In this document: positions 20,262-23,737 of the stretch, one piece after another | How positions within the stretch are numbered: position 1 is the first letter of the stretch | Layout of the letters: the number at the start of each line of letters is the position of its first letter | Source: Candidatus Woesearchaeota archaeon | GTDB taxonomy: Archaea; Nanobdellota; Nanobdellia; Woesearchaeales; GW2011-AR4 | NCBI GenBank assembly: GCA_016185915.1 | Contig: JACPMP010000059.1 | Location: 1-32,356 of the forward strand | Direction: 5' to 3' | DNA length: 32,356 nt | Position numbers and translations under genes: made by a program | Notes under the pieces: model-generated | What the model was told of the DNA's origin: nothing | The model's database searches: none | Seen by the model: only the letters and a program-made list of their open reading frames with translations

Positions 20262-20360
20262 TTATTTGTTCCCTTTCTTAAATATATCTTCAACCTTTTT
20301 CCAGTTGACAACATTCCACCAATTCTTTAAGTAATCGGCTCGTCTGTTTTGGTACCCCAT
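20262..20360 (-). pseudogene. orphan 3' end of an Fe/Mn superoxide dismutase gene (last ~30 codons)
   Basis: The minus strand translates to (M)[31 protein letters not shown], the canonical SOD C-terminus YQNRRPDY..WNVVNW. It aligns with [27 protein letters not shown] of the intact gene at 23129-23737. Confidence 0.6.
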
Positions 20361-20361
20361 T

Positions 20362-20817
20362 TTAGTAGGTCTCTCTAAATTTTCTACTTATGTTCAGTTC
20401 TCTAACTTCAAGCCACCAGGATGGTATCTTTAAATCTAATTTTTCGAGCAATTGATTTAGGTGATTTATTCTGAAAAATCTCTTAATATTTTTCCCAGAG
20501 ATACAAACAAATACTGGTTTGTTATGTTTTAAGGCTAAATCTATTTCTGAAATAGCCCCTAAAGTAAAAGTTGTATCTATTTCTAATGGCAATGGTAAGA
20601 TATACAATAATGCGTCTGATTCTTTAACAATATCAAAACATTCATTCATTAGTTTATTCCCATTATTATTTTGATTAATTTCTGTAAAAGGATTAAAGAA
20701 TAAATGGTTTTTGTACTTAGAATTAGTTGAGATTAATTTACTTTTTGCCGATTTAATTCTATTTCTTTCTTTGCCCTTTAAAATTAAAGGCATTGCAACA
20801 TAAATTTTCTTTTTCAT
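20362..20817 (-). CDS. nucleoside 2-deoxyribosyltransferase-like (flavodoxin-like fold) protein
   Basis: KIYVAMP at the N-terminus, then ...IVKESDALLYILP...TLGAISEIDLALKHNKPVFV. This matches the NDT-family layout of an N-terminal strand-Gly/Pro, a D-containing strand and E-x-G-x-A..KPV. 4-nt overlap with the upstream gene. Confidence 0.45.
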   Translation of the reverse strand: MKKKIYVAMPLILKGKERNRIKSAKSKLISTNSKYKNHLFFNPFTEINQNNNGNKLMNECFDIVKESDALLYILPLPLEIDTTFTLGAISEIDLALKHNKPVFVCISGKNIKRFFRINHLNQLLEKLDLKIPSWWLEVRELNISRKFRETY

Positions 20818-21236
20818 CCTAGTTTATTCTCTATCCACAATTTTCTTTCTTCTGGTGATAATGTTTCTAAAAACCGCTCGGAATAAATACCTTTAAGAGT
20901 GGACTCGTCACTTTTCCAATATCTATACTCAACTTTATCATTATTCTTATACCTCTCTGCTAGCTCAAATTTTCTGGAATCGTCAACATCATATAGACAT
21001 AAAACATAATCTTCCCCTTTCTTATGTTCATCCGTATTAATTTTAGCATGAAAGAATCCGTCTTTTTCTAACTCTTCAATTGCTATTTTATTTAATTCAT
21101 CTTTGTATTCAGAAAAAAATAAATATTTGCCAGTTATTTTAGGCTCTTTTTTAGAAATTTTTATGTAGTAATGCCAGTATTCATCATCTACTCTAATAAC
21201 ATTTTTTGATACCCTTTTTGGTTTTTGCATAATCAC
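20814..21236 (-). CDS. DUF1917-like (Bles03 / phosphothreonine-lyase-like fold) protein
   Basis: GKYLFFSEYKDELNKIAIEELEKDGFFHAKINT...EDYVLCLYDVDDSRKFELAERY...YRYWKSDESTLKGIY matches my recollection of the DUF1917 pattern (GKW.IF...AKVST...VICVYT.D...YK.D..T..G.Y). Confidence 0.45.
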   Translation of the reverse strand: MIMQKPKRVSKNVIRVDDEYWHYYIKISKKEPKITGKYLFFSEYKDELNKIAIEELEKDGFFHAKINTDEHKKGEDYVLCLYDVDDSRKFELAERYKNNDKVEYRYWKSDESTLKGIYSERFLETLSPEERKLWIENKLG

Positions 21237-21298
21237 TCAATTAACTTATATGTATTTGATTCTATTTTTTGCAAAAATTCTAAAAGTGCTTCTGTTTT

Positions 21299-21958
21299 TC
21301 ATTCATTTACTAACATTTTTTCAGTAATCAAGAAAGTATTTACTGCATCTGCTTCACAATACTCACGAAAAGCTTCTGGGTTTTCTTTCCACAATTTTTT
21401 AATAAGTTTTCCTTTATCAGGGTTGTTAGGAATATGTTCTTTTCCAGTCTTTAGTGGTAATCCTGAAAATGCACTATGTGTTATCAAATCTGATAAACTC
21501 CAAGGTTTGTACAAACCATTATTGTAACTCTTCATAAATATTGATGCAATAGTGGATGCCTCAATTGAAGGAGCATTTAAAAAATCCTTAATTTTCCAAT
21601 ATTGTTGAGATAATTTTTCTCCATTTTTAAAGTAGTCTTCAAATTTTTTCAATCTATAAGCAACTACAGGATGGTCATAGGTCATTGCAAAATAACCAAT
21701 TCTTACATACTTGTAACCTATACTTCGTAAAAGTATACCAAATTCTTTCATAATTTCAACTTCTGCAAGTTCTGTTTCCTCTTTCTTTATGAATGATTTG
21801 CAAACGAGTTTATTAGTCATATCACGATATGCCACCGTTATCGAAAGAAGTGGCTCTCCTTTCATCATGTCGCTAGTTTTGGGTACATCTGTTTCAATAT
21901 CCCAAGAGATTTTAGTTCCTGGCGTTAACCATATATGTTTTCCTTGGTCCAAATCCAT
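21299..21958 (-). CDS. stand-alone DEDD(y) 3'-5' exonuclease domain protein (family-B polymerase exonuclease-like)
   Basis: Exo I ISWDIETD, Exo II-like YFAMTYDHPVV, Exo III-like YCEADAVNT. At 219 aa it is too short to include a polymerase domain. Confidence 0.6.
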   Translation of the reverse strand: MDLDQGKHIWLTPGTKISWDIETDVPKTSDMMKGEPLLSITVAYRDMTNKLVCKSFIKKEETELAEVEIMKEFGILLRSIGYKYVRIGYFAMTYDHPVVAYRLKKFEDYFKNGEKLSQQYWKIKDFLNAPSIEASTIASIFMKSYNNGLYKPWSLSDLITHSAFSGLPLKTGKEHIPNNPDKGKLIKKLWKENPEAFREYCEADAVNTFLITEKMLVNE

Positions 21959-22047
21959 TTTTACCCCAATTTAGCTTTATTTTCTATACTTATTTGTTAA
22001 AAGATGAAAGTTATACTTATTTATATATCTCACGTCTCTTTGTCCAG

Positions 22048-22119
22048 TGTCCAGTGCTTTTTTACAATATAGAAAAAAATACTTTTAAGGTTTATAGATA
22101 AGCAAATTTGCACTGGACA
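22048..22119. promoter_or_regulatory. 10-bp inverted repeat (TGTCCAGTGC / GCACTGGACA) flanking an AT-rich, TATA-like 52-bp spacer in a divergent intergenic region; the left arm is part of a GTCCAGT x2 tandem
   Basis: Read directly at 22048-22057 and 22110-22119. It lies between the divergently oriented exonuclease and LAGLIDADG genes. Confidence 0.3.
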
Positions 22120-22161
22120 TCTCTGCCTAAAATATATAAAGGCATTCTACATCTGAAATTG

Positions 22162-22250
22162 AAAAAGAGAACACGCAAAACTGCCAAATTAAGCCTTTCT
22201 GTCTTCGACAAGAAAGCCTTTTACGCAGTTTCGCTTAACGTTCTCTTTTT
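22162..22250 (+). other. ~89-nt imperfect long hairpin in the putative leader of the LAGLIDADG gene
   Basis: An 11-bp perfect base (AAAAAGAGAAC 22162-22172 / GTTCTCTTTTT 22240-22250), internal paired blocks, and an apical stem CTTTCTGTC-TTC-GACA(A)GAAAG. A TATA-like AAATATATAAA lies ~25 nt upstream. Confidence 0.35.
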
Positions 22251-22300
22251 CCTTAATTCCAAAGTCTTTGGAAAACAAAAAACTTTGGAGGGTGATTAAA

Positions 22301-23128
22301 ATGAAAATAAGGATTAGGAAAAATCATGAATTAAGATTGAAAGCTTTTGATTTGATGAATGAACTTAAAAGTAATAATCTTACTCAAAAGGAGGTTATAG
22401 ATAAAATCTATGCAGAATTTGGTGTACCGAGAGGAACTTTGTATAGTTGGTATGCAAATAGAGATTATCCGTATGGGCGAAGAGGTAGAGAAGTTACTAA
22501 AAATCCTGAGTTATTCTATGTTTTAGGTGCCCTATTAGGAGATGGGTGTATTTATTACTGGAAGAAACTCAATAGGCATATTATAAACATTGCTGGTGAA
22601 AAAGAGTTTACAGAGAAATATGCAGACAAATTATCAAAATGCACCAGAAACAGAGTTAAAAACTATATAAACAGGAACAATAATGTTTGGTTTGTAAATA
22701 TTGGCAACCTTCAACTTTATTTTCTATTCCAACAAATAAGAGGAGACCTCAAAGTATTACGTAACCTTCTTGCAAAAGGAGATTACTACAAAAATTCTCT
22801 ACAGCTAATAGAAGGTTTTTTTGACGCTGAGGGTTGTATTAAGATTATAAAAGAAAAAGTGAGAAAAACTCCTAAAATATGCCCGGATATTTGCTGTACA
22901 AATTATGAAATTTTAGAATTGATAAGAAAACTTTTACAAGAGCATCTAAATATTGAAGCAAGATATTCAATTCAAAAAGCAGATGGTATCAAAAATAAGA
23001 AAGTTGCTTATCATTTAAGAATTTATAAAAAGGAATTTGTAAGAAAATTTTTTGAAAATATCAGTACAATAAAGTTAAAAAATGAAAAAATTGCTTATGT
23101 TGAAAATTGGTTAAACAATGGTTTATGA
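22301..23128 (+). CDS. free-standing double-motif LAGLIDADG homing endonuclease with N-terminal HTH region
   Basis: GGAGGGTGA lies 5 nt upstream of the ATG at 22301. Motifs LGALLGDGCIY and IEGFFDAEGCI are present. The N-terminal LTQKEVIDKIYAEFGVPRGTLYSWY is HTH-like. Confidence 0.8.
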   Translation: MKIRIRKNHELRLKAFDLMNELKSNNLTQKEVIDKIYAEFGVPRGTLYSWYANRDYPYGRRGREVTKNPELFYVLGALLGDGCIYYWKKLNRHIINIAGEKEFTEKYADKLSKCTRNRVKNYINRNNNVWFVNIGNLQLYFLFQQIRGDLKVLRNLLAKGDYYKNSLQLIEGFFDAEGCIKIIKEKVRKTPKICPDICCTNYEILELIRKLLQEHLNIEARYSIQKADGIKNKKVAYHLRIYKKEFVRKFFENISTIKLKNEKIAYVENWLNNGL

Positions 23129-23737
23129 TTATTTTTTCATTGCTTTTTTATAATATTCTTCTACTTGTGGCCAATTTACCACGTTCCACCAAGTTTTAAT
23201 ATATTCAACTCTAGCTGGACCCCACTTTTTATAGTACGCATGCTCCCACACATCAACACCCAAAATCGGAGTTTTCCCTTCCATCAATGGGCTGTCTTGA
23301 TTTGCAGTGCTGTAAACTTCTAATTTACCGTTGTTTAATACAAGCCACGCCCATCCTGAGCCAAACCTGTTCAAGCCAGCATTTGTAAACTCTTCCTTAA
23401 ATTTTTCAAAACCACCAAATGCCGATTTTATGGCATCTGCAACTTTGCCTTGTGGCTCACCTCCTGCATTTGGCGCCATTATCTGCCAGAAAAAAGAATG
23501 GTTTGAATGCCCTCCTCCATGGTTTCTTACAGCCGTTCTTATATTTTCAGGAACGTCATTTAATTTTTTAAGAACTTCATTGATGTCCATATCCTCAAAT
23601 TTTGTGCTTTTTACTGCACCGTTTAATTTATCAATATACGCTTGATGATGCTTTGTGTGATGTATGGTCATAGTCTGCTCATCAATGTACGGCTCAAGCG
23701 CATTGTATGCGTATGGCAATTTTGGTAATGTATGCAT
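23129..23737 (-). CDS. sod: Fe/Mn-family superoxide dismutase
   Basis: [34 protein letters not shown] and WNVVNW are all present. The ATG at 23737 is preceded by GGAGGCGG. The stop codon is directly adjacent (0 nt) to the convergent LAGLIDADG stop. Confidence 0.95.

Follow-up and report, generated by a model that had tools for sequence, protein, structure and literature searches.

The stretch of DNA analyzed here (the window) is a complete, metagenome-assembled contig of 32,356 nt from a Candidatus Woesearchaeota archaeon (DPANN), and the subject of this report is an element that lies inside its Fe/Mn superoxide dismutase gene (sod) and contains a free-standing LAGLIDADG homing endonuclease gene. 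The sod gene occupies 23129-23752 on the minus strand and was matched by both Pfam domains of the superoxide dismutase (SOD) protein (Sod_Fe_N, E = 8e-32; Sod_Fe_C, E = 1.7e-39). It had been called intact in an initial annotation, beginning at the second possible ATG (23737); its annotated start is ATG 23752. The gene body (23240-23752), which is the host part through the WEHAYY codons, was 81-83% identical in nucleotides, up to 23240, to the sod gene of a related locus that carries no endonuclease gene (L002; related loci are given L numbers and proteins P numbers). The remainder (23129-23239, minus strand) is a replacement 3′ end that is in frame with the body, ends in KKAMKK plus a stop codon and completes a functional gene. 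Positions 1-101 of the 102 in the Sod_Fe_C model were covered by the resident sod, which thus encodes a full-length product with an in-frame inserted C-terminus. The same 3′ end was colinear with the endonuclease gene in L161, L162, L004 and L164. The endonuclease gene of the window (22301-23128, plus strand) converges on sod, and its TGA (23126-23128) is followed directly by the sod TAA (23129-23131), giving the gap of 0 nt that had been noted at first sight. The two proteins correspond to NCBI entries P0001 (SOD) and P0121 (LAGLIDADG).

A second sod 3′ end with its own stop codon (31 codons) was found orphaned at 20262-20354, on the same strand as sod and 2.8 kb downstream of it. The open reading frame (ORF) that contains it (20262-20360, minus strand, 32 codons) matched positions 78-101 of the 102 in Sod_Fe_C (E = 5.5e-8, 33.2 bits; cut-off 20.9 bits) and a profile built from 120 related SOD tails (E = 2.9e-15), which bears out its original designation as a SOD tail. 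The SOD-like part starts at the TAC (Y) codon at 20354, and the leading MG is not SOD-like. Beyond the orphan lies a flank (18986-20261) comprising a spacer (20138-20261), a zinc-ribbon gene (19718-20137, plus strand) and a lipoprotein-like gene (18986-19672, plus strand). This flank provided the synteny anchor, by tblastn and blastn, to relatives with or without the endonuclease gene (L002, L003, L082 and L099). No integrase or transposase domain was detected by Pfam in 20262-23737, as the initial annotation had stated, and a search of the insert ends for terminal direct or inverted repeats and target-site duplications found none. No Rfam intron family was matched; sod is uninterrupted and has its own stop codon, and the endonuclease gene is antisense to it. 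When 2.9 million viral contigs were searched with the endonuclease family, two weak partial matches were returned. The element is neither intron-borne nor intein-borne nor phage-borne, and it has no recombinase.

The extent of the insert was defined by comparison with an unoccupied site. L002 and L003 were obtained from a scan of species-representative genomes with the SOD protein, which returned few close relatives. The gene order in L002 is PP-loop ATPase, sod, zinc-ribbon (82% aa identity to the window) and lipoprotein-like (71% aa identity), with neither the LAGLIDADG gene nor the genes that lie between it and the orphan in the window. Three segments of L002 were aligned with the window: 4415-4988 with 23831-23240 (81% nt identity), 5004-5113 with 20354-20247, comprising the orphan and 15 nt past its stop codon (77% nt identity), and 5965-7115 with 20136-18933. 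Since the sod body of L002 runs straight into an orphan-like tail, the window carries an insert of 2.88 kb at 20355-23239, and the insertion scar that had been proposed from the displaced gene end is thereby supported, as is its estimated size of about 2.9 kb. The break falls within a few codons after WEHAYY. When nucleotide identity to L002 was calculated over aligned codons, the gene body reached 83%, the orphan 73% and the resident tail 57%. By this measure the orphan is the native-like sod end and the resident tail is foreign, in agreement with the earlier proposal that a divergent 3′ end had been brought in and the original left stranded. The same synteny without the element was also found in L003. 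Presence and absence of the element at one precise site within the same synteny were therefore represented by the unoccupied L002 and L003 and by the occupied window, L082 and L099.

The endonuclease gene encodes a monomeric, two-motif LAGLIDADG protein of 275 aa that was matched by PF14528 at 2.2e-9, above the cut-off. ATG 22301, which is preceded by GGAGG, is its probable start, rather than TTG 22268. The protein has an N-terminal extension of approximately 65 aa, and the two motifs, LGALLGDG (containing D81) and FFDAEG (containing E177), were invariant among 37 aligned homologues; the window ORF is full length. When a profile of the family was searched against the PDB, PI-PfuI (1dq3, E = 0.0017, both motifs covered) and I-DmoI (E = 0.008-0.03) were the only solved structures detected, and the single sequence matched nothing. 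More than 250 homologues were collected at 50-86% identity, and were assigned by their sources to Woesearchaeota, Nanoarchaeota, Micrarchaeota and, in one case, a Paceibacterota of the candidate phyla radiation (CPR). The CPR contig (L166-L168, the same as L120) was named Candidatus Paceibacterota by its source, and the neighbors on it include DUF5652 and TGT genes. The endonuclease family may thus cross the boundary between archaea and bacteria.

Metagenome contigs searched with the endonuclease profile yielded 80 loci. A convergent sod lay directly downstream in 78 of these, and in the other two the contig stops at the endonuclease gene. Overall, a convergent sod was adjacent in 86 of the 88 loci with a family member, the arrangement being repeated in L004, L161, L162, L164, the CPR contig and a Micrarchaeota contig (L169). 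The stop-to-stop gap ranged from −103 to +30 nt in 85 of the 86 loci, with a single outlier of 161 nt; because the commonest value is 0 nt (17 loci), the gap of 0 nt in the window is a family trait. This association with sod supports the LAGLIDADG gene as the probable agent of mobility, the role for which it had been put forward initially. It had also been supposed that an element of this kind targeting sod would be unusual. The arrangement is new to the literature searched, but it is common in nature and not a one-off. The window element belongs to a large, sod-specific family that has not been described before. The SOD proteins of occupied loci were 37-88% identical to that of the window, which indicates that the element has entered very different sod lineages. 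Occupancy is patchy: among approximately 12 DPANN-like reference genomes with sod and enough flanking DNA, one (L004) carried the element. Copies of the endonuclease lacking the N-terminal 60-80 residues were found in L004, L119, L123, L125, L126, L130, L145, L146 and L154-L156, and the copy in L124 is also truncated at its N-terminus; in L004 the leader that precedes the gene has been kept while approximately 200 nt of endonuclease coding sequence have been deleted. These shortened copies are probably decaying, as is expected in a homing cycle, and a patchy, decaying distribution is that expected of a homing endonuclease gene.

Six-frame translations of the related loci were searched with the tail profile. 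An orphan sod tail beyond the endonuclease gene, on the sod strand, was found in at least 24 of the 80 loci. Full-length orphans start at profile positions 4-9, that is, at the (A)YY-LKYQN codons right after WEH.YY (for example yyLKYQNRRPEY, yyLQYKNDRGAY, kkYQNRRQEY and ikFQNRRNEF); the others are decayed. The insertion point is therefore constant to within about six codons across at least 24 orphan-bearing loci, and in the window the metal-ligand motif D-V-W-E-H-A-Y-Y immediately precedes the module, which lies inside the 3′ part of sod. Most orphans lie 12-170 nt from the start of the endonuclease gene, and the basic element is accordingly about 1 kb, consisting of a replacement tail and an endonuclease gene. 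In all 13 orphan tails that were examined, an open frame of natural length has been kept.

The SOD segment next to the insertion point was compared among the 120 closest SOD proteins. Residues 175-183 (window 23204-23230) varied more than any other internal stretch (entropy 1.64; mean 0.69), and the pairwise identities of body and tail were uncorrelated (r = 0.04). In 21 of the 53 pairs of SOD proteins with bodies at least 90% identical, these residues were no more than 34% identical; P0038 and P0093, for instance, have bodies that are 98% identical and the segments KKFGPARAE and LLYSQRRAD. The segment occurs as discrete types (KKWGPAR.., LKYQNKR.., LKWQQQR.., LKHMWNR.. and LLYNQRR..) that are shuffled independently of the remaining protein. 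At the nucleotide level, L002, L004 and L099, which come from three datasets, share about 75 nt at 100% identity, from WEH to NWWNVVNW, within genes that are otherwise 78-84% identical. The patch lies at 4940-5070 in L002, at about 450-540 in L004 and in the 3′ part of sod in L099; L002 has it without an endonuclease gene. Identity between L004 and L099 was 95-100% in the tail and in the 3′ half of the endonuclease gene, and 55-80% elsewhere. We read the identical patches as conversion tracts centered on the insertion site, and that in L002 looks like a tract left without the nuclease gene. Together, the shortened endonuclease copies, mosaic tails and conversion patches point to ongoing mobility within the family.

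The insert is composite, consisting of a conserved module of 1.13 kb (22111-23239) and a population-specific block of 1.75 kb. The cassette of about 2.9 kb that had been described initially is thus not a single conserved unit, since 22111-23239 is all that is shared with other elements. The module comprises a promoter motif, a structured leader, the endonuclease gene and the replacement tail. Its left edge (22111-22140, plus strand) is formed by the motif CACTGGACA at 22111-22119 followed by a TATA-like box at 22129-22140. Homology with L161, L004, L082, L099, L086, L083 and L085 starts sharply at 22108-22111; the edge at 22111 is common to nine loci, and in L105 the orphan abuts it. This edge region is a probable promoter and operator. 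The CACTGGACA 9-mer has three exact copies in the 32 kb, and each of them lies between the cargo operon described below and the endonuclease gene. Two of these overlap (22041-22056) and, with a TATA-like box at 22020-22027, form an inverted promoter copy (22020-22056, minus strand) that faces the cargo operon; the corresponding inverted repeat, I2 (22020-22049 and 22111-22140), is 70% complementary. The motif was also seen in 1-3 copies ahead of a TATA box in related elements (L083, L086, L104, L115 and others). It may serve as an operator for the N-terminal domain of the endonuclease. A TrmB-like helix-turn-helix gene lies just upstream of the endonuclease gene in L089 (1867-2628, overlapping the endonuclease start) and L112 (5088-5801); the two are 27% identical to each other and the L089 and L112 elements are divergent. 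This gene may be a dedicated regulator in a subclade without the structured leader.

The leader of the endonuclease mRNA (22157-22296, plus strand, 140 nt) has two hairpins. The first (22161-22251) is long and imperfect; the second (22257-22290) has 9 bp, and part of the ribosome-binding site, GGAGG, is paired in it. The leader was conserved at 71-87% nt identity in 10 loci. In the fold, 94% of cells were paired, against 36-55% in slid controls, and 12 compensatory pairs were observed where 4.4 were expected, a number reached in 0 of 500 shuffles. Between the window and L082 the leaders were 87% identical in nucleotides and the endonuclease proteins 57% identical in amino acids. Searches of Rfam at gathering and permissive thresholds returned nothing credible for the leader, and a covariance model of it found no copies beyond the 10 training loci and L162; it is therefore a subclade feature and not a family feature. 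The leader may throttle translation of the nuclease. The possibility that the 190-nt leader region is a decayed, older orphan tail was rejected, because its translated alignment scored below shuffled sequence.

The block of 1.75 kb lies between the module edge at 22111 and the orphan at 20354, contains three genes on the minus strand and was seen in the window population only. Cargo gene 1 (21299-21958, 219 aa) encodes a stand-alone 3′-5′ (DEDD) exonuclease of the type found in family B polymerases (PolB). The protein alone matched PF10108 at 1.9e-4, below the cut-off. PF03104 was matched by 13 of 21 distant relatives and PF10108 also by family members, the exonuclease domains of PolB structures in the PDB matched the family at E = 1e-7, and the DxE...D...YxxxD residues were invariant. 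The label DEDD exonuclease, given from the sequence at first reading, is accordingly sound at the family level. A word-based search of 5.8 billion proteins returned no close homologue other than the protein itself, and an exhaustive phmmer search of 1.84 billion representatives found 37 distant relatives. Cargo gene 2 (20814-21236, 140 aa) and cargo gene 3 (20362-20817, 151 aa, with its stop codon 1 nt before the orphan ORF) were given no family assignment, neither being matched credibly in Pfam, PHROGs or PADLOC. Single-sequence AlphaFold models had pLDDT values of 46.7 and 48.8, respectively, and were unusable. The labels DUF1917-like and NDT-like that these two genes had received thus found no support in these searches, the NDT-like fold of the 151-aa protein being a guess at the level of motifs.

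The slot between module and orphan was also inspected at other loci. None of the three cargo genes occurred in approximately 170 related loci, and no phage or viral relatives of them were found in the phage and viral collections searched. L165, considered as a second occurrence of the cargo, was rejected as a 100% identical fragment of the same population; it comes from an independent assembly (run SRR12113424) and corresponds to window 20128-22137. Its ends, just inside the module edge (22137) and just past the orphan flank (20128), could reflect population variants at the junctions. The slot exceeds 1 kb in 4 of roughly 22 distinct orphan-bearing loci and holds different genes in each: a 401-aa ORF in L082, the TrmB-like regulator and an 84-aa membrane protein in L089, proteins of 229 aa and 175 aa in L151, and the three cargo genes in the window, where the insert is the largest of the four. 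PADLOC and PHROGs searches of the cargo and of the slot genes in L082, L089 and L151 returned nothing that points to defence or phage genes. In all four loci the final gene of the slot points the same way as sod and either stops no more than about 10 nt from the orphan or runs into it (positions of the last slot gene and the orphan, respectively: window, 20362-20364 and 20354; L082, 3533 and 3603; L089, 1598 and 1591; L151, 6331 and 6321). Possible reasons for these gene ends and for the open frames of the orphans are that the former sod terminator has been reused or that the orphan is under selection as a homology arm. As the module edge at 22111 is shared while the cargo genes are absent elsewhere, the cargo does not belong to the conserved module. 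It is lineage-specific, and its acquisition was probably a separate event. It may have come together with the module, may be a later insertion or may be donor flank that was captured in illegitimate repair. The inverted promoter-motif copy ahead of it hints at integration with the element.

Other genes of the window were recorded in passing. A restriction-modification pair lies two genes upstream of sod (25445-27753, minus strand) and consists of a CfrBI-like endonuclease (PF09516, 1e-23) and an N4/N6 DNA methylase with N-terminal HEAT repeats. At that position in the syntenic L002 and L001 the PP-loop gene is present, and a CfrBI homologue was not found. In an ORF at 77-1513 (plus strand), the C-terminal half of an amino-acid permease occurs together with a class I SAM methyltransferase domain; the ORF begins near the contig end and may be a truncated or fused gene call.

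Taken together, the locus is very probably a sod-specific homing element of a Woesearchaeota archaeon, built like the mobile ORFs of fungal mitochondria. As sod is left complete by the replacement end, it requires no splicing. The endonuclease would cut unoccupied sod alleles in or close to codons 172-180. The break would then be resected and repaired on the template of an occupied allele, with the sod body as the 5′ homology arm and either the orphan tail or, where synteny is shared, the downstream flank as the 3′ arm. Along with the endonuclease gene and its leader, repair would copy the replacement tail and whatever genes lie in the slot, and the recipient's own tail would become a new orphan, which we propose is left untranslated or unneeded and serves the element as its 3′ homology arm. 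The imported tail would keep SOD functional and, as it differs at the cut site, would protect the occupied allele. Abortive events would leave conversion patches without an endonuclease gene, and repeated rounds may have made SOD residues 175-183 hypervariable and the tails mosaic. Because both arms lie inside a conserved gene, the element would be portable between genomes that share no synteny.

Several observations weigh against this account. The L002 site used as the empty allele carries a conversion patch identical to that of occupied alleles, so that L002 may be a converted or formerly occupied allele and not a naive one. The occupied alleles L086, L099, L133 and L146 have canonical YQNR(K/R) tails, and L006, which has no endonuclease gene, has a tail of the GPAR type. 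Protection is therefore not explained by one protein motif, and, given the WGPAR-type tail on L006, tail type alone is no marker of occupancy. The cargo is confined to this population, and no second occurrence supports its co-mobility. Cleavage, the exact recognition sequence and the resistance of the resident tail are all inferred from sequence.

Alternative explanations of the locus differ mainly in what they make of the cargo and of the present state of the nuclease. The whole 2.9 kb may have arrived in a single homing event from a cargo-bearing donor, with the exonuclease, for example, processing the break or widening co-conversion under the control of the copied element promoter. The slot is filled exactly from the module edge to the orphan with no spare DNA, the two inverted CACTGGACA copies with their TATA-like box stand upstream of the cargo and the motif occurs nowhere else in the 32 kb, and genes occupy the slot at other loci too; a 229-aa slot gene recurs in L151 and L138, and a 117-aa gene by the module edge recurs in L161 and L085. 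Such recurrence may, however, be plain inheritance in related genomes. The three genes are absent from all of the approximately 90 other endonuclease loci, the closest element (L161, endonuclease 86% identical) diverges exactly at 22111, the exonuclease stands without a close homologue among the proteins searched and most orphans are found less than 170 nt from the endonuclease start, so that we consider a one-step arrival of the cargo possible but doubtful. Rated a little lower still is an old, genuine insertion whose endonuclease is now inactive or immobile here and has been inherited vertically. Insertion in a common ancestor would fit the zinc-ribbon and lipoprotein synteny shared by the occupied L082 and L099, many family members are truncated, and the orphan is just 73% identical to its nearest native tail. 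Against this, the window ORF is full length with invariant and catalytic positions intact. The endonucleases of the window and L082 are much less alike (57%) than their leaders (87%), and with syntenic flanks this argues for exchange rather than simple vertical descent. The 100% identical patches across divergent genomes likewise indicate recent conversion within the family.

The protein could instead be a domesticated partner of sod, that is, a host regulator or maturase-like factor with a LAGLIDADG fold and not a selfish nuclease. The linkage to sod is extremely strict and tight, with convergent, overlapping transcripts, the N-terminal extension resembles a helix-turn-helix and has a weak match to a 'transcriptional regulator' family, and the leader and the operator-like motif are conserved. 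We regard this as very unlikely, given the orphan sod tails at one codon position in at least 24 loci and the occupancy of about 1 in 12 reference genomes. Endonuclease copies that are truncated, catalytic D/E residues that have been kept and mosaic tails bearing conversion patches likewise fit a mobile nuclease. Hardly credible is a decayed second sod copy, left by tandem duplication and unrelated to the endonuclease, which had been named from the outset as the competing explanation. In principle, a paralogue that was deleted could have left a same-strand sod fragment 2.8 kb downstream as its last remnant, and L006 has a GPAR-type tail without the cassette and without the zinc-ribbon/lipoprotein synteny. 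This explanation is contradicted by the break point, the fragment beginning exactly where the homology of the resident gene with L002 ends, and by the downstream flank of the orphan, which in L002, L003, L082 and L099 borders the only sod gene. In at least 24 loci an orphan is broken at this same point, in every case past the endonuclease gene.

If the locus is read as a homing element, the organellar design, a mobile ORF that replaces the C-terminus, would be represented by a large, active family in cellular chromosomes of the smallest archaea and bacteria. The mechanisms of gene exchange in DPANN and CPR groups are almost unknown, and a nuclease family fixed on one sod site marks DNA exchange between their lineages. 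The family would also point to a natural set of meganucleases with a defined, protein-constrained target, and the element would explain the hypervariable, mosaic segment that follows the WEHAYY metal-ligand motif in these SOD proteins. For annotation, short orphan gene ends beside LAGLIDADG genes should be taken as insertion scars and not as pseudogene copies. The cargo in the window sits between two sod-derived arms, so further homing would copy it along; if mobilized, the slot would offer accessory genes a route that requires no integrase or transposase. More tentatively, the sod-embedded element may act as a portable platform for gene delivery, carrying the slot contents into any genome with a cleavable sod. 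Should this be so, its reach would extend across DPANN archaea and even into CPR bacteria, and an arms race between nuclease and target would concurrently remodel a functional SOD segment (residues 175-183). In the literature searched by full text, neither LAGLIDADG genes associated with sod nor elements of this kind in DPANN or CPR organisms were found described.

The closest known parallels are the mobile ORFs of fungal mitochondria. In Glomus sp., the atp6, atp9, cox2 and nad3 genes each have an inserted C-terminus, an endonuclease ORF and the native C*-terminus (Beaudet et al. 2013, PMC3630166), and the same architecture in Allomyces macrogynus atp6 is cited there from Paquin, Laforest & Lang (1994). 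As in those elements, the endonuclease ORF of the window lies in the 3′ part of a conserved protein gene, a foreign, in-frame C-terminus replaces the native one, which is orphaned downstream, relatives resemble the native end more than the inserted one (73% and 57%, respectively, in the window), and neither an intron nor an intein is present. The fungal elements are organellar, whereas the hosts here are prokaryotic chromosomes of DPANN archaea and, by source naming, CPR bacteria, and the target is sod. The fungal ORF is co-oriented with its target and often in phase, whereas here the endonuclease gene runs on the opposite strand, converging on its target and abutting it. The module of the window further differs in containing a structured leader and an operator-like motif, in the possibility of extra genes between the endonuclease gene and the orphan, and in belonging to a large family (>250 proteins) tied to a single target. 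Given the antisense endonuclease gene and the archaeal chromosome, the element would work like a fungal mobile ORF but is not a member of the fungal lineages. A second parallel is the intronless homing of the seg and mob genes of T4-like phages, in which a free-standing endonuclease gene adjoins its target gene, spread is likewise ascribed to double-strand-break repair with co-conversion, and mosaic tracts surround the site. The phage enzymes are of the GIY-YIG or HNH type, lie between phage genes and normally have no duplicated gene end; here, a LAGLIDADG enzyme is found in a cellular context, and the insertion is inside a coding sequence whose 3′ end is replaced. With I-DmoI (from an rRNA intron) and PI-PfuI (from an intein) the endonuclease shares a monomeric, two-motif LAGLIDADG architecture and the catalytic D and E residues, at a very distant level of similarity. 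It differs from both in residing outside any intron or intein, in having the additional N-terminal domain of about 65 aa and in being directed at the 3′ part of a protein gene.

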